From: Pseudomonadota bacterium
GTDB lineage: Bacteria; Pseudomonadota; Gammaproteobacteria; Pseudomonadales; Pseudohongiellaceae
Length of the DNA: 64,000 bases
Direction of reading: 5' to 3'
NCBI GenBank assembly: GCA_041178065.1
Contig: JBEGWB010000155.1
Location: forward strand, 1,497 to 65,496
Shown: positions 10,538-38,741 of the stretch, piece by piece
How positions within the stretch are numbered: position 1 is the stretch's first letter
Layout: each line of letters opens with the position of its first letter
Notes under the pieces: generated by a model
What the model saw: only the letters and a program-made list of their open reading frames with translations
Told to the model about the DNA's origin: nothing
Databases searched by the model: none
Program-made: the position numbers and the translations under genes

Positions 10538-11143
10538 ATGAAATTCGAAGTACCGCCCTTACCGTATCCCCGGGATGCGCTGGAACCGGCGATGAGCCGC
10601 AACACGCTGGAGTTCCACTACGAGAAACACCACAAGGGTTACATGGCAAAACTGAAAGCCGCGCTCGAGGGCACCCCTGACGAAAGCAAGTCGCTCGAAG
10701 AGATCGTGCGTTCGTCGCGCGGCTCCGTCTTCAACAATGCGGCGCAGGTGTGCAATCACACCTTCTTCTGGAAAAGCATGAAACCGGGCGGCGGTGGCGT
10801 GCCGCCGTCCGGTCCACTACTCGACATGGTCAACGAGGATTTCGGTGGCTGGGATGGCTTGCGCAAGCAACTGATCCAGAGCGGCGTGGATCGTTTCGGT
10901 TCGGGCTACGTATGGCTCGTGCTGAAAGGTTCGCACCTGAAAGTGCTGAGCACCGGCAACGCGGAGACTCCGCTGATCACCAGCGCCAAGCCACTGTTGA
11001 CCTGCGACCTGTGGGAACACGCGTACTACCTCGACTATCAGAACCGGCGCGACACGTTCCTGGAGACGTTCTGCGACAAGCTGGTCAACTGGGACTTCGC
11101 GCTGAAGAACCTGAACGAATCACGCGTGCAGCAGGTAGTCTGA
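10538..11143 (+). CDS. sodB: Superoxide dismutase [Fe]
   Basis: LPYPRDALEP, EFHYEKHHKGY, NNAAQVCNHTFFW and DLWEHAYYLDYQNRR. RBS AGGAGG. Confidence 0.9.
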   Translation: MKFEVPPLPYPRDALEPAMSRNTLEFHYEKHHKGYMAKLKAALEGTPDESKSLEEIVRSSRGSVFNNAAQVCNHTFFWKSMKPGGGGVPPSGPLLDMVNEDFGGWDGLRKQLIQSGVDRFGSGYVWLVLKGSHLKVLSTGNAETPLITSAKPLLTCDLWEHAYYLDYQNRRDTFLETFCDKLVNWDFALKNLNESRVQQVV

Positions 11144-11270: not shown

Positions 11271-12662
11271 ATGGACACTCGCAAGGAAACCGACAGTCTC
11301 GGCAGCATCGATGTACCACGCGCGGTGCTGTGGGGAGCGCAAACCCAGCGCTCGCTGCAAAACTTTGCAATCGGCATCGCCTTGCCGGGCAGGCAACAGT
11401 TTCCGCTGCGTTTCATCCACGCGTTTGCGCTCGTCAAGAAAGCAGCGGCGCAGGCGAATAACGAACTGGGGCTGCTGTCCGCAAAACTCTGCGACCTCAT
11501 CACGCAGGCCTGCGACGAAATTGCGCAGGGCAAGCATGACGATCAGTTCCCGCTCGTCGTCTGGCAAACCGGCAGCGGCACGCAAACCAACATGAACCTC
11601 AACGAAGTCATTGCCAATCGTGCCAACGAGCTCGCGGGCCATGCGCGTGGGGGCAAGTCGCCGGTGCATCCCAATGACCACGTCAACCTGTCGCAGTCAT
11701 CCAACGATGTGTTTCCGACGGTGATGCACGTCGTCGTCGCCGCGTCGCTGGGTGACAAGCTGCTGCCGGCGCTTGAATACCTGCAGCAGTCGCTCGCGGA
11801 GAAAGCACTCGAGTTCGCCACGCTAATGAAGACCGGGCGCACGCACATGATGGATGCGACGCCAATCGCGCTCGGTCAGGAATTCAGCGGCTACCACCAG
11901 CAGGTCGACTATGCGCGCAGGCAGATTCTGGCCGTGTTGCCTGAGGTGCAGGCACTCGCGATCGGCGGCAGCGCAGTCGGCACCGGCCTCAACACGCCGC
12001 CGTACTGGACCGAAACCGTCACGCGCAACATCGCGACATTGACCGACATTCCCTTCACGTCGGCGCCGAACAAGTTCATGGCGCTCGCGGCGCATGACGT
12101 ACTCGCCGATCTCAGCGGTCGCGTGCGCGTGCTTGCCACTGCCTTGCTGAAAATCGGTAACGACCTGCGGCTGATGGCCAGCGGTCCACGCTGCGGTCTC
12201 GCGGAAATACGGCTACCGGAAAACGAGCCGGGCAGTTCGATCATGCCTGGCAAGGTCAACCCGACGCAGATCGAAGCGCTGACAATGGTGGCGATCCAGG
12301 CGATGGGTAACGACGCCGCTGTCGCGATCGCGAACAGCCAGGGCCAGTTCGAACTGAATGTCTACAAACCGCTGATCTTCCGCAACGTGTACGAGTCCAT
12401 CGAGTTGTTGAGTGACGCTATTGAGGGTTTTACCCGGCAATGTTTGCGGGGAATCGAGGCCAATGCGCAGCGCCTTTCCCGCTATGCTGAATTGTCACTG
12501 ATGCGCGCCGCCGAGCTAACGCCATTTATCGGCTACGATCTCGCCGCCAAAAGCGCGCAACTGGCTCACGAACAGGAAATCTCCCTCAAGCAGGCGGTGC
12601 TGCAGTTGGGCGCGATGACTGAAGCCGAATTCGACAAGGCAATCAATCCGAAACCAGCATAG
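11271..12662 (+). CDS. fumC: Class II fumarate hydratase
   Basis: 463 aa. Signature GSSIMPGKVNPTQ and N-terminal DSLGSIDVP pattern. RBS GGGAGGA. Confidence 0.92.
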   Translation: MDTRKETDSLGSIDVPRAVLWGAQTQRSLQNFAIGIALPGRQQFPLRFIHAFALVKKAAAQANNELGLLSAKLCDLITQACDEIAQGKHDDQFPLVVWQTGSGTQTNMNLNEVIANRANELAGHARGGKSPVHPNDHVNLSQSSNDVFPTVMHVVVAASLGDKLLPALEYLQQSLAEKALEFATLMKTGRTHMMDATPIALGQEFSGYHQQVDYARRQILAVLPEVQALAIGGSAVGTGLNTPPYWTETVTRNIATLTDIPFTSAPNKFMALAAHDVLADLSGRVRVLATALLKIGNDLRLMASGPRCGLAEIRLPENEPGSSIMPGKVNPTQIEALTMVAIQAMGNDAAVAIANSQGQFELNVYKPLIFRNVYESIELLSDAIEGFTRQCLRGIEANAQRLSRYAELSLMRAAELTPFIGYDLAAKSAQLAHEQEISLKQAVLQLGAMTEAEFDKAINPKPA

Positions 12663-12691
12663 CTTGCATCCGGCAAGCTGGAGGAAGGGAT

Positions 12692-13315
12692 ATGGCGATT
12701 TCGAAAACCTTAAAGAATGCCGACGACGACAAGCCCCTTAAGACCATCCGCGAAGCCATCGGCATTTTCCACAACGCAGACACGCTGCACGCCGCGATCG
12801 ACGAACTGATCGCCGCCGGTTTCACGACCGACGAGCTCGGACTCCTCGCCAGCGAACAGGTCGTCGAAAATTCCCTCGGCGACCTCTATGAGCGCACCAA
12901 CGACAATCCCGAATCCACAGATGCGCCCGCGATTGCCTTCGTGCGTCGCGATACGCTCGGTGAAACGGCGCGTACGCATTTCGCCAGCCTTTTCTTCGTC
13001 GGTACCGGCGGCGTCATGGGCGGGCTCATCGCGACGGCTGCTGTCGTCGCCAGTCCCTTGCTGGTTGCGCTTGGCGCGGTCGTTGGTGTCGGTATGGTCG
13101 GTGCGGCCGCGGCCGCCTTCATTCACCAGAGCGACGCCGAATACCTGCAGCAGCAGGTCGATGAAGGCCAGATCCTGTTGTTCGTGCGCATCGATGACGC
13201 ACGCGGCCAGCAGGCCATGAACATCCTGAAGCGCCACAGCGGGCTCGACGTGAAGATGTACGAAGTTCCTGTCACGACTGAAGCGCCCAATTCGGCGCGC
13301 GCCATCAATACCTGA
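12692..13315 (+). CDS. Hypothetical protein with a central Gly/Ala-rich hydrophobic segment
   Basis: RBS GGAGGA. 207 aa. Hydrophobic stretch FFVGTGGVMGGLIATAAVVASPLLVALGAVVGVGMVGAAAAAF. No family recognised. Confidence 0.5.
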   Translation: MAISKTLKNADDDKPLKTIREAIGIFHNADTLHAAIDELIAAGFTTDELGLLASEQVVENSLGDLYERTNDNPESTDAPAIAFVRRDTLGETARTHFASLFFVGTGGVMGGLIATAAVVASPLLVALGAVVGVGMVGAAAAAFIHQSDAEYLQQQVDEGQILLFVRIDDARGQQAMNILKRHSGLDVKMYEVPVTTEAPNSARAINT

Positions 13316-13355
13316 ATGTCAGCCAGCGCTTGTATGCATCAGAGTGTTGGCTACC

Positions 13356-13427
13356 CCCGAGATTCTTCATGTGCCCGAGATTTTTCATGCCCCCGAGGTT
13401 TTTCATGCACCCGAGGTTTTTCATGCA
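13356..13427 (+). repeat. Four tandem 18-bp repeats (CCCGAGRTTYTTCATGNN) just upstream of and in frame with sodC
   Basis: Units at 13356-13373, 13374-13391, 13392-13409 and 13410-13427. Units 3 and 4 are identical (CCCGAGGTTTTTCATGCA). Each unit carries an ATG; units 3 and 4 have GAGG 6 nt before it, units 1 and 2 have GAGA. Confidence 0.95.
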
Positions 13428-14001
13428 AATGAAGCGACAGGTCCCACTGCTATTTGCCACGCTCTTTTTGCCCGGCATGGCCGGCGCCGCCAGCGACGCG
13501 CAGCTGATCGTCCAGATGAACAGGGTGACCGATGCCGGTGTCACCGAGCCGCTTGGCGAGATCCTCATCGTCGACGTGGCGCATGGCGTCGAACTGCGGC
13601 CCGCGCTGACCGGGCTCGCGCCGGGCCAGCATGGTTTTCATGTGCATGAGTTCGGCAGCTGTGATCCCGGCATCGATGAGTCGGGAAAGGCGGTAGCCGC
13701 GCATTCGGCCGGCGAACACTACGATCCCGATGGCGCCGACCAGCATGGCTCGCCACTGGCCAACGATGGCCACAAGGGCGACTTGCCGATACTGAACGTC
13801 GGCGCCGACGGTCGCGCCACGATAGTCATGCAAGCCTCGCGTCTTCGCATCGACGACCTTGCGGGACGCGCGCTGATCATCCATGCCGGCGGCGACAATT
13901 TCACTGACGTACCGCCCAACGGTGGCGGTGGCGCACGCGTCGCCTGCGGCGTGATTCCGGGCCAGCCCGAAGCCTTGCCGTTGCCACAGTCCGCGCAGTA
14001 G
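13423..14001 (+). CDS. sodC: Periplasmic superoxide dismutase [Cu-Zn]
   Basis: Signal peptide MKRQVPLLFATLFLPGMAGAAS. HGFHVHEFGSC, GHKGDLP and HAGGDN...GGGGARVACGVI. The start is ambiguous among in-frame ATGs at 13369, 13387, 13405, 13423 and 13429. Confidence 0.9.
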   Translation: MQMKRQVPLLFATLFLPGMAGAASDAQLIVQMNRVTDAGVTEPLGEILIVDVAHGVELRPALTGLAPGQHGFHVHEFGSCDPGIDESGKAVAAHSAGEHYDPDGADQHGSPLANDGHKGDLPILNVGADGRATIVMQASRLRIDDLAGRALIIHAGGDNFTDVPPNGGGGARVACGVIPGQPEALPLPQSAQ

Positions 14002-14014
14002 TGTTGAAACTGGA

Positions 14015-14050
14015 CAGGCCGCGCTGATCCTTGTCGATCAGCGCAGCCTG
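14015..14050. terminator. Hairpin between convergent sodC and the katE operon
   Basis: CAGGCCGCGCTGATC-cttgtc-GATCAGCGCAGCCTG, imperfect with one mismatch. No strong T-run. Confidence 0.4.
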
Positions 14051-14104
14051 TTGCGACAGGCAACCCTGGCGCAGCGAGCGTTCCTCGACGCGTCCGGGCA
14101 CTGG

Positions 14105-14689
14105 TCAGCGACTCTTCTCCGCCTTCGCCGCAGCCAGTGCCGACGTCACATGTTGTTCCTCTTCCGGCGGCGGCAACATCGCTTCGAGGCCAAGGGCCTG
14201 TAACCACAGCTCACGGCACCAGCCCCTGGTGTGGTACAGATGTTCGTCTTCTTCATCTTCGACCTGCTCGTAAGCCTGTTGCAGCGCCGCGCCCTGTTCG
14301 GGCGGCAGCGCCTTGGCGCATTTGCCCATCAGGTGCCAGTTCATGTGGTCCTTGGTTTCGGCATGCACGACGCATTCGCAGGCCACCAGCTCGGCCGCGG
14401 TCGGATCGTTTGCGGCGAGCGCCATCTTCATGGCGATGACGAGGGACTTGCCGTTGTGCTCGACGATCTTGCGTCCCGGCGTGATTTCGCCGGGATCCAG
14501 TCCAAGCGACTCGCACACGGTCGTCATGACGAGCACGTGGTTTTCTGTCTGCGCCAGATACTTCTCCCACTCTTCACGCAGGTCCTCGTTGAGCACGCAC
14601 TCGAGCGCAGTGCGGTATACCAAAACTCCGCCGCGTTCATGTTCGAGCGCCTGCAGTAGAAGTTCTTTCACTTGCGGGGCTAGTTTCAT
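14105..14689 (-). CDS. Hypothetical all-helical protein, possibly a ferritin-like four-helix bundle, co-transcribed with katE
   Basis: Starts 26 nt after the katE stop. RBS GGGAGA. Several E/H-rich helices (ALEHERGG, AQTENH, HAETKDH). Family not recognised. Confidence 0.45.
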   Translation of the reverse strand: MKLAPQVKELLLQALEHERGGVLVYRTALECVLNEDLREEWEKYLAQTENHVLVMTTVCESLGLDPGEITPGRKIVEHNGKSLVIAMKMALAANDPTAAELVACECVVHAETKDHMNWHLMGKCAKALPPEQGAALQQAYEQVEDEEDEHLYHTRGWCRELWLQALGLEAMLPPPEEEQHVTSALAAAKAEKSR

Positions 14690-14715: not shown

Positions 14716-17169
14716 CTATACGACCGGCGGATCGGTTTCGCGTGCAAAGTGCCGGTGCATCGAGATGGCCTCCGCGAATGCGGCAAATGCGCCATCGCCT
14801 TCCTCCGCCGCAAATTGCAGCAGGCCGGGATCCGCTTCACCGTCGGGCAGGGCGGGTGGTATGCCCGCCTTGTCGAGCAGCGCAGTCGCGGCGCCCAGCA
14901 GCAGAATTGGCTTGCAATGCCGGTACTGGTCCTTGAGGAATTCGATTGCGTGGCCGCTGTGCGACAGCGCCTGCACGCCGGCCTCTCCGTCCGGCAGCAC
15001 GAGCGCGTCGTACAGCACGGACGGGCCCGCCTCGAGGGAAATCTCGACTTCAATCGGCTCACCATCGCCGGTCGTGACCGGGCCCAGCTTGATGCCAACA
15101 AAGCGTGGCACTGCGCCTTCCGCGGCAAGCTGCTGATGCAGATTGAGAAGACTCTGTCCCGCAACTCCATCGGCAACCATGACGGCAATCCGCCGTGCCT
15201 GGATTCCGGTTTCACCGGGCCGCGCGAACAGCGACAGTGCTGGCGACTCCGTGACTTCCGGTTTCGGCGCCCGTGGCAATACGCGCGGCAATGGGTCGGG
15301 CAGTTCCATGCCGAGTCCGTCGGCGACGCCCTGCGCCAGTTCCTCGGCGACGTTGCGCAAGCCGGCGACCATGCGGCGCCTGATCGCAACGGTTTGCACT
15401 TTCGTCAGCTCGAAGCGGAAGGCGCGGATGATGTGTTGCTTCTCGACATCGGTCTGGCTGTTCCAGAACAGCGTGGCCTGGTTGTAATGCTCGGCGAACT
15501 TCTCGGGCTTGCCGCGTACCTTGTGTTCTTCGGTTTGCTCCGGGAAGGACATGAAGCCTTTGGTACCCGCCTGGAACGGGCAGCCACCGGCCAGCGAGTT
15601 TGGCTCGTAGGCCACGCGTCCGCGCGGAATCGCCTGGCGATGGAAGCCGTCGCGCTGGTTGTTATGCACCTGGGCAACGGACGCGTTGATCGGAATTTCA
15701 TGGAAGTTGGGACCGCCGAGCCGCGTGATCTGCGTGTCGACGTAGGAATGAATGCGCCCCGCAAGCAAGGGATCGTTGCTGAAGTCGAGGCCAGGCACGA
15801 TATGCGCCGTGCAAAACGCAACCTGCTCGGTTTCCGCAAAGAAGTTGTCAGGATTGCGATTGAGCACCATGCGCCCGATCGGCCGCACAGGGATCAGCTC
15901 TTCCGGCACGATCTTCGTGGCGTCGAGTATGTCGAAGCTGAAATCCTCCGCCTGCTCCTCGGTGAACACCTGGATGCCGAGCTCGTACTCGGGATAGGCG
16001 CCGGCCTCGATCGCTTCCCACAGGTCGCGACGATGGAAGTCCGGATCCGCGCCGGAAATCTTCACGGCTTCGTCCCAGGCGAGCGAATGCGTGCCGGCCA
16101 GCGGTGTCCAGTGGAACTTGACGAACACTGACTTGCCGCCCTCGTTGATGAAACGGAAGCTGTGCACGCCAAATCCCTGCATCGTGCGATAGCTGCGCGG
16201 GATCGCGCGGTCGGACATCACCCACATCAGCATGTGCGTCGATTCCGGCATCAGCGAGACGAAATCCCAGAAAGTGTCGTGCGCCGACGCAGCCTGCGGC
16301 ATCGCGTGATGCGGTTCGGGTTTGACCGCGTGCACGAGATCGGGAAACTTCATCGCATCCTGGATGAAGAACACCGGGATGTTGTTGCCCACGAGGTCCC
16401 AGTTGCCTTCGTCAGTGTAGAACTTCACGGCGAAGCCACGCACGTCGCGTGCAGTGTCGGTGGAGCCACGTTCGCCGGCGACGGTCGAGAAACGCACGAA
16501 CACCGGCGTGCGCTTGCCAGCCTCGGCGAAGATCGACGCGCGCGTCAGCTCGCCCAGCGGCTCGTAACATTCGAAGTAGCCGTGCGCCGCCGAGCCGCGC
16601 GCATGCACGATGCGCTCGGGTATGCGTTCGTGGTCGAAGTGCGTGATCTTTTCGCGCAGGATGAAGTCTTCGAGCAGGCTTGGGCCGCGCAGCCCCGCCT
16701 TCAGTGAATTCTGGTTGTCGGCAATTGGCACGCCCTGGTTGGTCGTGAGCACGCGGCCGCTGGAATCGACCCGGACCCGATCCAGCGGACCATTGCCGGG
16801 GTTGAAACTCATCTGCGGATTGCCGCTGCCCGCTTTCTCCGACGCGTTCTCTTCAGACAGCGTGCTCGCGCCGACGATCGGATCCGGTGGATCCGCGGTC
16901 TGCCCCTCGGCCGGCATCATCGCAGCCGTGCCGTACTCGGAGGCTTTCGCCGCATTGTGCGGAAAGGCGTTCGCCAGCAGTTCCGTGCCCTCCATTTTCT
17001 GCGCGGCAAGGTCGGCGCTGCCGGATTCGCGATGCGTGGGACCACTCATCGTCGAGCGCGCTGATGTTGCGGTGTCGCTGCGGGCTTTGCCGCTTGTGCT
17101 GGCGGAAGGAGAGGACTTTTTCGAGGGGCGTTTTTCTGCCGATTTTGTCGGCGGTTTTTTTGCAGCCAT
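14716..17169 (-). CDS. katE: Large-subunit catalase (HPII type)
   Basis: [32 protein letters not shown] and [19 protein letters not shown]. Carries an extra C-terminal flavodoxin/DJ-1-like domain. 817 aa with a long Lys/Ser-rich N-terminus. Confidence 0.9.
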
Positions 17170-37508: not shown

Positions 37509-37554
37509 CAACTTACTCGGACCTTTTGATCAACTTACTCTGACCCCTTTGATC
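37509..37554 (+). repeat. Family B repeats (one degenerate plus one intact) at the 3' end of queG
   Basis: 37528-37554 is GATCAACTTACTCTGACCCCTTTGATC. It is preceded by the degenerate CAACTTACTCGGACCTTTTGATC. The last codons and the stop of queG lie inside the element. Confidence 0.85.
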
Positions 37555-38602
37555 CCGCATGCCGCGTTAGCGCCCAGGCCACATGCTCGCGCACGAGTGC
37601 CGAACGATGCTCTGCGCGGCTCTGCAGGGCCGCGATGACCGTGGCGCTCGTCGGCGCATTTCCCAGCGCCACCGCAAGATTGCGCAGCCAGCATTCGTAG
37701 CCGATGCGGCGGATCGGTGAACCTTCGGTATTGCGCAGGAATTCTTCCTCGCTCCAGTTGAACAGTTCGACGATCTGCGCGCGGTCCAGCTCGTGCCGCG
37801 GCGTGAAGTCCTTTTCCTTCGCGGGACGCGCGAACTTGTTCCAGGGGCAGCACAGCTGGCAGTCGTCGCAGCCGAAGACGCGGTTGCCGATCAGCGGCCG
37901 CAGCTCCACCGGGATCGCCGTGCGCAGTTCAATCGTCAGGTATGAGATGCATCGGCGCGCATCGAGTTGCTGTGGGCCGGTGAAGGCATTCGTCGGACAC
38001 AGGTCGAGACAGGCGGTGCAGGTACCGCAGTGGAACTCCGCCTTCGTATCGACAGGTAGGGGCAGGTCGGTGAACAGTTCGCCGAGGAAGAACCAGGAGC
38101 CGGCGCGTTTGTTGATCAGCATCGTGTTCTTGCCGATCCAGCCGAGCCCGGCTTTTTCGGCGAAGGCGCGCTCGAGCACCGGCGCGCTATCGACAAATGC
38201 GCGGTAGCCGAAGGCGCCGATGTGCTGCTGGATCTGGTCGGCCAGTTGCTGCAGTCGGCGGCGTATCAATTTGTGGTAGTCGCGCCCGAGCGCATAGCGC
38301 GACAGGTACGCCTGTTGCGGATTCTGCAGCACCTGCACCATACGCGTGTCTTCGGGCAGGTAGTCCATGCGCAGGGAGATCACGCGCAGTGTCCCGGGTA
38401 CAAGTGTTTGTGGCTCGGCGCGCAGGCTGGCGTGGCGTTCCATGTAATCCATTTCGCCGTGGTAGCGCTTCGCGAGCCACTCCTGCAGGTGCGCGGCGTG
38501 CGCGCCGATGTCGAGGTCGGCGATACCCGTTTGCTGAAAACCGAGTTCAGACCCCCAGGTCTTGATGAGTGCGGCGAGTGCAGAGAAATCGGGTTGCGAC
38601 AT
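37535..38602 (-). CDS. queG: Epoxyqueuosine reductase
   Basis: N-terminus MSQPDFSALAALIKTWGSELGFQQTGI and YHGEMDYMERH resemble E. coli QueG. 4Fe-4S motifs CGTCTACLDLCPTNA and CDDCQLCCPWN. Confidence 0.88.
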   Translation of the reverse strand: MSQPDFSALAALIKTWGSELGFQQTGIADLDIGAHAAHLQEWLAKRYHGEMDYMERHASLRAEPQTLVPGTLRVISLRMDYLPEDTRMVQVLQNPQQAYLSRYALGRDYHKLIRRRLQQLADQIQQHIGAFGYRAFVDSAPVLERAFAEKAGLGWIGKNTMLINKRAGSWFFLGELFTDLPLPVDTKAEFHCGTCTACLDLCPTNAFTGPQQLDARRCISYLTIELRTAIPVELRPLIGNRVFGCDDCQLCCPWNKFARPAKEKDFTPRHELDRAQIVELFNWSEEEFLRNTEGSPIRRIGYECWLRNLAVALGNAPTSATVIAALQSRAEHRSALVREHVAWALTRHAGSKGSE

Positions 38603-38617
38603 GCGGCTATGGTAACG

Positions 38618-38741
38618 AATCAAAGGGGTCAGAGTAACTTGATCGGGTTGCGCCGCGCGGTTGTACAGGCTCGGGCGATCAAGTTACTCTGACCCCTTTG
38701 ATCCAGGCTCGGGCGATCAAGTTACTCTGACCCCCTTGATC
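38618..38741. repeat. Cluster of three family B repeats (one inverted plus a 38-bp tandem duplication)
   Basis: 38618-38644 is AATCAAAGGGGTCAGAGTAACTTGATC (inverted copy). 38666-38703 and 38704-38741 are two tandem 38-bp units, CAGGCTCGGGCGATCAAGTTACTCTGACCCC(T/C)TTGATC. Confidence 0.9.

Follow-up and report, generated by a model that had tools for sequence, protein, structure and literature searches.

The stretch of DNA analysed here, referred to as the window, is a 64-kb chromosomal piece of a Pseudomonadota metagenome-assembled genome (MAG) with a GC content of 61%. Between 10538 and 17169 it carries an oxidative-stress cluster in which genes for an Fe/Mn superoxide dismutase (SOD) and fumarase C, the membrane protein gene ORF207 and the Cu/Zn SOD gene sodC follow one another, with ORF194 and a catalase gene inserted on the opposite strand. 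ORF194 is probably co-transcribed with the catalase. The features that enter the analysis are the following.

10538-11143, Fe/Mn-SOD, first gene of the order SOD, fumC, ORF207, sodC
11271-12662, fumarase C, between the Fe/Mn-SOD gene and ORF207
12692-13315, plus strand, ORF207, a conserved uncharacterised membrane protein directly upstream of sodC
13321-13352, plus strand, imperfect hairpin of 11 bp within the 40-nt leader that separates unit 1 of the array from the ORF207 stop
13334-13355, plus strand, possible decayed extra unit or units, starting ATGCA, with weak similarity to the units
13356-13427, plus strand, 18-bp tandem array of 4.0 units (13356-13373, 13374-13391, 13392-13409 and 13410-13427)
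13359-13362, plus strand, weakened Shine-Dalgarno (SD) sequence (GAGA) of unit 1; unit 2 has the identical GAGA at 13377-13380
13395-13399, plus strand, SD-like GAGGT of unit 3, 5-6 nt before ATG 13405
13413-13417, plus strand, SD sequence GAGGT of unit 4, which would serve the conserved start at 13423
13423-14001, plus strand, sodC coding sequence from the conserved start (MQMKRQVPLLFATLFLPGMAGAAS...), a predicted Sec signal peptide followed by the Cu/Zn SOD domain
14105-14689, minus strand, ORF194, between sodC and the catalase gene, with no Pfam or NCBIfam match
14716-17169, opposite strand to sodC, large catalase
37528-37554, 38618-38644 (minus strand), 38677-38703 and 38715-38741, copies of a 27-bp element, including a 38-bp tandem pair

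No regulator gene was found near sodC; the adjacent genes encode enzymes and membrane proteins, and those farther away metabolic enzymes. A related locus, L012, has the matching gene order without the catalase/ORF194 pair, and continues with the same Fer4/DmsC and molybdopterin oxidoreductase genes as the window. Pseudomonas aeruginosa has an iron-regulated fumC-sodA operon, which the pairing of SOD and fumC in the window recalls. Elsewhere in the window, a 27-bp element with self-complementary ends, GATCAAGTTACTCTGACCCCTTTGATC, occurs in four copies in both orientations, the chance expectation being none. They lie on either side of a queG-like gene (37535-38623, PF08331 plus Fer4_16), and the element looks like an intergenic repeat of the REP/MITE type.

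The array ahead of sodC can be read directly from the plus strand as CCCGAGATTCTTCATGTG, CCCGAGATTTTTCATGCC, CCCGAGGTTTTTCATGCA and CCCGAGGTTTTTCATGCA, the units abutting exactly and AATGAAGCGACAG lying directly 3' of unit 4. Tandem Repeats Finder (TRF) reports it with a period of 18, 4.0 copies, 90% matches, no indels and a score of 102, the second highest in the window after an unrelated 38-bp repeat, so that the four abutting units described in an earlier note on this DNA are borne out by both sequence and program. The unit consensus is CCC-GAG(A/G)-TT(C/T)TTC-ATG-NN, a conserved core of 16 nt followed by a variable 2-nt junction. Also as the earlier note had it, in units 3 and 4 a GAGG precedes the ATG by 6 nt, its place being taken by GAGA in units 1 and 2, the ATGs of all units (13369, 13387, 13405 and 13423, as well as 13429) are in the sodC frame, and translation gives PRFFM(C/P/H/Q) repeats. 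Its description of the T-rich unit as conspicuous in a GC-rich genome holds in that the local GC content is lower, but the contrast is modest (0.52-0.53 at the array as against 0.61 for the whole window). A dispersed genome-wide repeat, named there as an observation that would speak against a link to sodC, did not appear: allowing up to three mismatches, the 18-mer has three matches in the 64-kb window, all within the array (0.02 expected; 0 of 100 shuffles reached three). In this the array differs from dispersed REP- or MITE-like repeats, no other copy with up to three mismatches being present in the window or in the public collections. As in minisatellites and VNTRs, it consists of head-to-tail direct repeats of a unit in the range of roughly 10-100 bp, and like those at gene starts its motif contains the start codon and ribosome-binding site (RBS) of the adjacent ORF, since ATG 13423 and its GAGG both lie within unit 4. 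Over 6314 bp, all four units included, the window has a 100% identical counterpart in L001 (SRR35180140), a Logan contig that was assembled independently.

ORF207 encodes a protein of about 200 aa whose N-terminal domain is conserved and whose membrane segment is rich in Gly and Ala. The protein matches no Pfam or NCBIfam family; some JGI records name homologues 'SlyB'. Homologues lie directly upstream of sodC in gammaproteobacterial MAGs, with an ATGA overlap in two, and sodC is not adjacent to more distant homologues from Alphaproteobacteria. ORF207 may be a functional partner of the periplasmic SOD. In relatives the two genes are 0-37 nt apart or overlap as ATGA, a spacing that implies a single transcript and translational coupling.

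The same junctions give the state from which the array would have arisen. In the protein collection, ORF207 has relatives at 90%, 83% and 60-69% identity, and there too sodC follows ORF207. The closest relative with DNA is L093, from a JGI metagenome, whose ORF207 shares 83% of amino acids, 79% of nucleotides and 57% of third codon positions with that of the window. Its junction reads ...GCG TAA cttgttttgaggagacacctgaga ATG CAA ATG AAA CGA AAA..., with 24 nt between stop and start; SodC begins ATGCAAATGAAACGA (MQMKRK) from a single start site, and TRF found no tandem repeat on the whole L093 contig. In L013, a Lysobacterales MAG, a single CCACGAGGATTCCCATGCAAGTA (MQVK...) corresponds to CCCGAGGTTTTTCATGCAAATG of unit 4 in the window, with CCACGAGGATTCCCATGCAA likewise standing against CCCGAGGTTTTTCATGCAA. 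L002 and L009-L011 each have one CGAGG-N6-8-ATG, 32-34 nt after the stop of the ORF207 homologue, and in L012 and L014 the homologue and sodC overlap as ATGA. No tandem repeat is present at the junction in L013 or L014. When the four units and the single-copy sites of the relatives are aligned jointly, the invariant columns are CGAG and ATG. The existence of these homologous single-copy sites identifies the 18-bp unit as the initiation region of sodC itself (SD, spacer, ATG and CA). On the JGI 3300041965 contigs of P0121 and P0122, whose ORF207 is 90% and 83% identical, gene calls place the start of the next gene 22 and 20 nt past the stop; this is gene-call geometry only. Such gaps agree with that of L093 and leave no room for an array of this kind. 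If they hold a single SD-ATGCAAATG, the array would be younger than about 10% protein divergence.

The comparison of sodC upstream regions that the earlier note had proposed for related strains was thus made with other species, and it gave one start site each and no array. Judged by these junction sequences, the four-copy state is derived and lineage-specific, and the expansion half of the note's suggestion that the tract varies in copy number is supported by the single copies of the relatives. One allele is known, represented by two identical contigs. Scans with a degenerate two-unit pattern in genome contigs, and with 1.3-unit and unit-sodC junction patterns in metagenome contigs, had no match, a result that says little on polymorphism because the collections exclude even the source contig.

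In the window sodC is also farther from its neighbour, its start lying 107 nt from the ORF207 stop as against the 0-37-nt junctions or ATGA overlaps of the relatives. Part of this distance is the 40-nt leader at 13316-13355, which L093 lacks and which simple duplication of the unit does not account for. A likeness of 13334-13355 to the units is weak: its cyclic-profile score is 6.5 against 1.5 +/- 2.5, a value reached by 22 of 500 shuffles and 34 of 997 random windows (p about 0.04). The hairpin in the leader, AGCCAGCGCTT...GAGTGTTGGCT, is centred on ATGCAT and is not a terminator by the scan, since no T-run follows it. Neither a sigma-70-like promoter nor an intrinsic terminator was found by the scan between ORF207 and sodC. 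Over 12600-14200 there is no Rfam match at E <= 1, and nothing in this region corresponds to a known structured RNA leader.

The reading frame entered by the array is that of a Cu/Zn SOD (Pfam PF00080, E 7e-34). Against NCBIfam the best match of the product is SodC NF007628 (E 6e-45), at 153 bits below the equivalog cut-off of 165 bits. A Sod_Cu domain follows an N-terminal Sec signal peptide, as in periplasmic SodC, the signal peptide being predicted from the homologue alignment, in which the n-region, the hydrophobic core and the AGAAS motif of the window protein align with those of the homologues. SodC has no close relative in the protein collection, where the next match after its own entry, P0001, is 54% identical.

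Where this protein begins is obscured by the repeat. The longest ORF in the frame runs from TTG 13330 without interruption across the array, the public call (P0001) begins within unit 3, at 13405, and the earlier note began the protein at 13429, with AATG and MKRQ. Comparison with homologues places the conserved start at ATG 13423 in unit 4 (MQMKRQ) and not at 13429, which is 6 nt too far downstream. From 13423 the window protein aligns with L093 SodC from residue 1, so that MQMKR is common to both, and MQ is also common to L013. A GAGG at -10 precedes 13423, as in the neighbouring genes, where the distance is 9-12 nt; for 13429 it would be at -16. Finally, the relatives have 26-32 residues before the VQMN motif, and the window has 29 from 13423, as compared with 27 from 13429, 35 from 13405, 41 from 13387 and 47 from 13369. 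The public call at 13405 and the earlier one at 13429 are both understandable results of the repeat. No record matched, in exact look-ups, the SodC variants that begin at 13423, 13429 and 13387.

Two observations made alongside concern other potential starts. At 3150-3215 of L004, the public call of a sodC homologue (P0020) is much extended at the N-terminus and includes two MKK starts (GFTMKKN... and GFFMKKI...) that share a frame at a distance of 36 nt. Since no direct repeat there reached significance, we rejected this locus as a second case of start-site duplication; it is probably an over-extended gene call. In the window, CATG is palindromic, and each unit therefore has a minus-strand ATG as well, from which MKNLG(C/G/H) is read, in an antisense ORF of 87 aa at 13305-13568. 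This candidate gene, which has no SD and is antisense to the 5' end of sodC, was judged to be non-coding.

Within the array the units are graded. No difference separates unit 3 from unit 4; two sites distinguish unit 2 from unit 3, and three distinguish unit 1 from unit 2. This gradient indicates that the oldest part of the array is its 5' end and that the most recent extension took place next to sodC. The differences affect three places: the SD core (G to A, making GAGA of GAGG), the spacer (T/C) and the dinucleotide after the ATG. Those in the SD core and the spacer fall within the part coding for PRFFM and are synonymous in the sodC frame (AGA/AGG and TTC/TTT). Together with the kept ATGs and the open frame, these changes could hint at selection on translated upstream units as against neutrality, two sites being too few to decide. 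In the neighbouring genes the distance from the first base of GGAG or GAGG to the start codon is 9-12 nt. With GAGG at -10, units 3 and 4 are canonical SD-ATG modules of the same geometry.

We consider it probable (about 0.75) that the array is a lineage-specific minisatellite, formed by repeated tandem duplication of the initiation region of sodC itself and tolerated, with the mature enzyme unchanged. In the ancestral state, preserved by the relatives, a single SD-ATG module follows the upstream gene at 20-37 nt or overlaps with it as ATGA. Replication slippage would then have repeatedly duplicated an 18-bp segment containing the SD, the spacer, the start codon and the first two positions of codon 2. 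The last copy holds the conserved start at 13423, the preceding copy, identical to it, is equally canonical, and the two oldest copies have drifted. Ribosomes that start at upstream copies would read straight into sodC, given a period divisible by 3 and a unit free of stop codons. Their products would gain (M)xPRFF units, each with one Arg, in the positively charged n-region of the predicted Sec signal peptide, and cleavage of the signal peptide on export would remove the extensions and leave mature SodC unchanged. The duplication would thus be tolerated because upstream starts merely lengthen the n-region, by multiples of 18 nt, a length divisible by 3. With any other kind of period, upstream starts would instead give rise to short ORFs that overlap the real start out of frame. 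Upstream SD-start-stop units lowered translational efficiency to 0.05-0.5 in E. coli reporter constructs (PMC3045613), from which it follows that only an in-frame period would be expected to persist. The in-frame property of the array needs no further explanation: an 18-nt, stop-free duplication is the kind that purifying selection would let through.

With regard to output, we infer that sodC is co-transcribed with ORF207 and that more than one start is used; initiation is expected at unit 3 as well as unit 4, and to a weak extent at units 1 and 2. The net effect of the array on SodC output is likewise expected to be small, from neutral to about 2-fold. A crude, simplified initiation model of the Salis type, with terms for the anti-SD duplex, a spacing penalty and the unfolding cost, ranks the starts as 13423 > 13405 ~ 13429 > 13387 > 13369. 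Summed over alleles of 1-6 units, the rates it gives run erratically from 0.2 to 5.5 with no trend (1.8 for four units and 3.0 for one), sums too erratic to argue for or against a benefit of copy number.

The best of the other explanations, though an unlikely one, is that the array is a selected translational device, in which stacked in-frame SD-AUG sites and U-rich spacers act as entry or standby sites that raise SodC and offset the lost coupling to ORF207. It draws on the canonical geometry of units 3 and 4, on the distance of 107 nt that now separates the start from the ORF207 stop, where relatives have 0-37 nt or an ATGA overlap, and on the preservation of the frame and of all ATGs, with both substitutions within PRFFM synonymous. 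The array region is also free of significant RNA structure (fold z -0.69). Drechsel and Bock (2011) built synthetic mRNAs with 2-4 tandem SD and in-frame ATG modules, all of which were used in E. coli, and the in-frame stacks raised translational efficiency 1.4-2.5-fold when closely spaced (PMC3045613). However, the spacing of 18 nt is less than the ribosome footprint, so the sites would compete rather than add (PMC3045613). Moreover, the initiation model shows no trend and gives a lower sum for four units than for one, the two distal units lack the GAGG core, and no relative examined has converged on such an arrangement. The proposal of the earlier note that stacked initiation sites raise translation of a secreted enzyme is thus upheld in its anatomy, with units 3 and 4 canonical and the N-terminal variants confined to the n-region; the gain itself did not emerge, the model showing no monotonic benefit and the SDs of units 1 and 2 being weakened. 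From this analysis the stacked starts are a plausible reading, but no regulatory role of the array emerged. A stronger claim, that the array is an evolved, selected multi-start module acquired after the loss of coupling, whose slippage-prone copy number tunes secreted SodC while signal peptidase erases the N-terminal differences, appears rather improbable to us.

Far less probable is an operator or iteron-like array bound by a DNA-binding regulator specific for the TTTTTCATG/CCCGAGG unit, which the earlier note had also put forward. Four regularly spaced direct repeats just 5' of a stress gene, with a conserved 16-nt core followed by a variable 2-nt junction, have the outward form of such an array. 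In the 64-kb window, however, the motif is absent elsewhere, including the regions 5' of sodB, fumC and katE; a search with the 13-nt core at two mismatches gave scattered chance-level matches in the rest of the window, none of them 5' of other stress genes. There is neither an adjacent regulator gene nor a promoter-like site nearby. At the homologous junction of seven related loci the site is missing, conservation there being limited to the positions of SD and ATG. The 18-bp period, in addition, would set successive sites on different faces of the helix. What marks an operator or iteron array, a recurring or orthologously conserved motif and a nearby gene for a DNA-binding protein, was thus not found here, the motif being absent from the window's other promoters and gene starts as well as from the junctions of the relatives. 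To our knowledge, the unit has no resemblance to Fur, OxyR, PhoB or CopR-type boxes.

It is harder still to credit the array with encoding a functional (PRFFM-X)n peptide at the N-terminus of SodC, for instance a metal-binding (Met/His/Cys) or membrane-interacting extension. The long ORF from TTG 13330 would allow one, and the substitutions within PRFFM are synonymous while the variable residue is Cys, Pro, His or Gln. Such a peptide would nevertheless precede the hydrophobic core of the signal peptide, and would therefore be cytoplasmic and lost on cleavage. The relatives, moreover, start with MQMKR or its equivalent, 26-32 residues before VQMN, and have no extension. No homologue with PRFFM repeats was found; a search with the N-terminal 100 aa, repeats included, matched not even the protein itself and is uninformative here. 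An assembly or sequencing artefact, conceivable for a window from a MAG, is just as improbable, since the second, independent contig is identical over 6.3 kb including the four units, the 72-bp array is shorter than a typical read, and graded unit differences are not a product of collapse or expansion artefacts. Finally, a phase-variable contingency locus based on a frame-shifting simple-sequence repeat was rejected: the 18-nt period excludes on/off variation, being divisible by 3, and there is no in-frame stop and no flanking promoter-like hexamer.

A tolerated duplication of the sodC start has partial counterparts among known repeats. In Neisseria, the opa genes carry CTCTT repeats in the region coding for the signal peptide and are phase-variable simple-sequence contingency loci. 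Like the sodC array, these repeats are prone to slippage and stand at the 5' end of a gene whose product is exported; the opa unit, however, is 5 nt long, so that a change in copy number shifts the frame and turns the gene on or off, which the 18-nt unit of sodC cannot do. Mycobacterial MIRUs, reportedly described by Supply et al. in 1997, are intercistronic VNTRs of 40-100 bp at about 40 loci per genome. They resemble the array in being tandem repeats of an operon's intergenic spacer whose reading frame links the stop signal of one flanking gene to the start signal of the other. In contrast to these longer and dispersed elements, the sodC unit is 18 bp long, confined to a single locus and derived from the local start site.

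Closer in kind are the start-codon minisatellites of Yersinia pestis, in which 6 of 88 VNTR loci have a motif that contains the start codon of a gene (PMC3689786). These are head-to-tail units of 16-45 bp, and a change in copy number alters the 5' end of the ORF; the 17-bp motif of N1398 (AGTACGGAGGTGATAAA) even includes an SD-like GGAGG, as the sodC unit carries its SD (PMC3689786). The Y. pestis loci are, however, defined by observed copy-number differences between strains, whereas the sodC array is known from one allele, and most of their motifs are not multiples of 3, whereas the sodC period of 18 makes every copy an in-frame start (PMC3689786). The constructs of Drechsel and Bock share with the array the repetition of SD-ATG modules in frame into one ORF, but they were engineered and their extensions were removed by TEV protease, while the sodC case is natural and would depend on signal peptidase; that paper does not describe a natural example of such a stack (PMC3045613). 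The tandem repeats of Borgs are, like the array, young, lineage-specific and near-perfect, and their units inside ORFs are always divisible by 3 (bioRxiv 10.1101/2022.05.18.492195), which is the general rule for repeat periods within ORFs. Borg repeats differ from the array in that they are pervasive in an archaeal extrachromosomal element, A-rich and give rise to disordered protein regions, and they are not duplications of start sites (bioRxiv 10.1101/2022.05.18.492195). The array is thus best placed with a known kind, the start-codon minisatellites, and what is specific here is that a whole SD-ATG module is the unit, in frame and before a cleavable signal peptide.

If the duplication is merely tolerated, its value is a practical one, since a minisatellite at a start site misleads gene callers, as the call in unit 3, the longest ORF from TTG 13330 and the start at 13429 illustrate. 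It would also show that such repeats survive only with a period that is a multiple of 3 and a disposable N-terminus. Even the use of multiple starts, if true, would leave the understanding of translation initiation unchanged. If all copies are used and their number varies, however, the array would be the equivalent, in nature, of engineered multi-RBS cassettes, and slippage at sodC would provide a graded, rather than on/off, control of expression.
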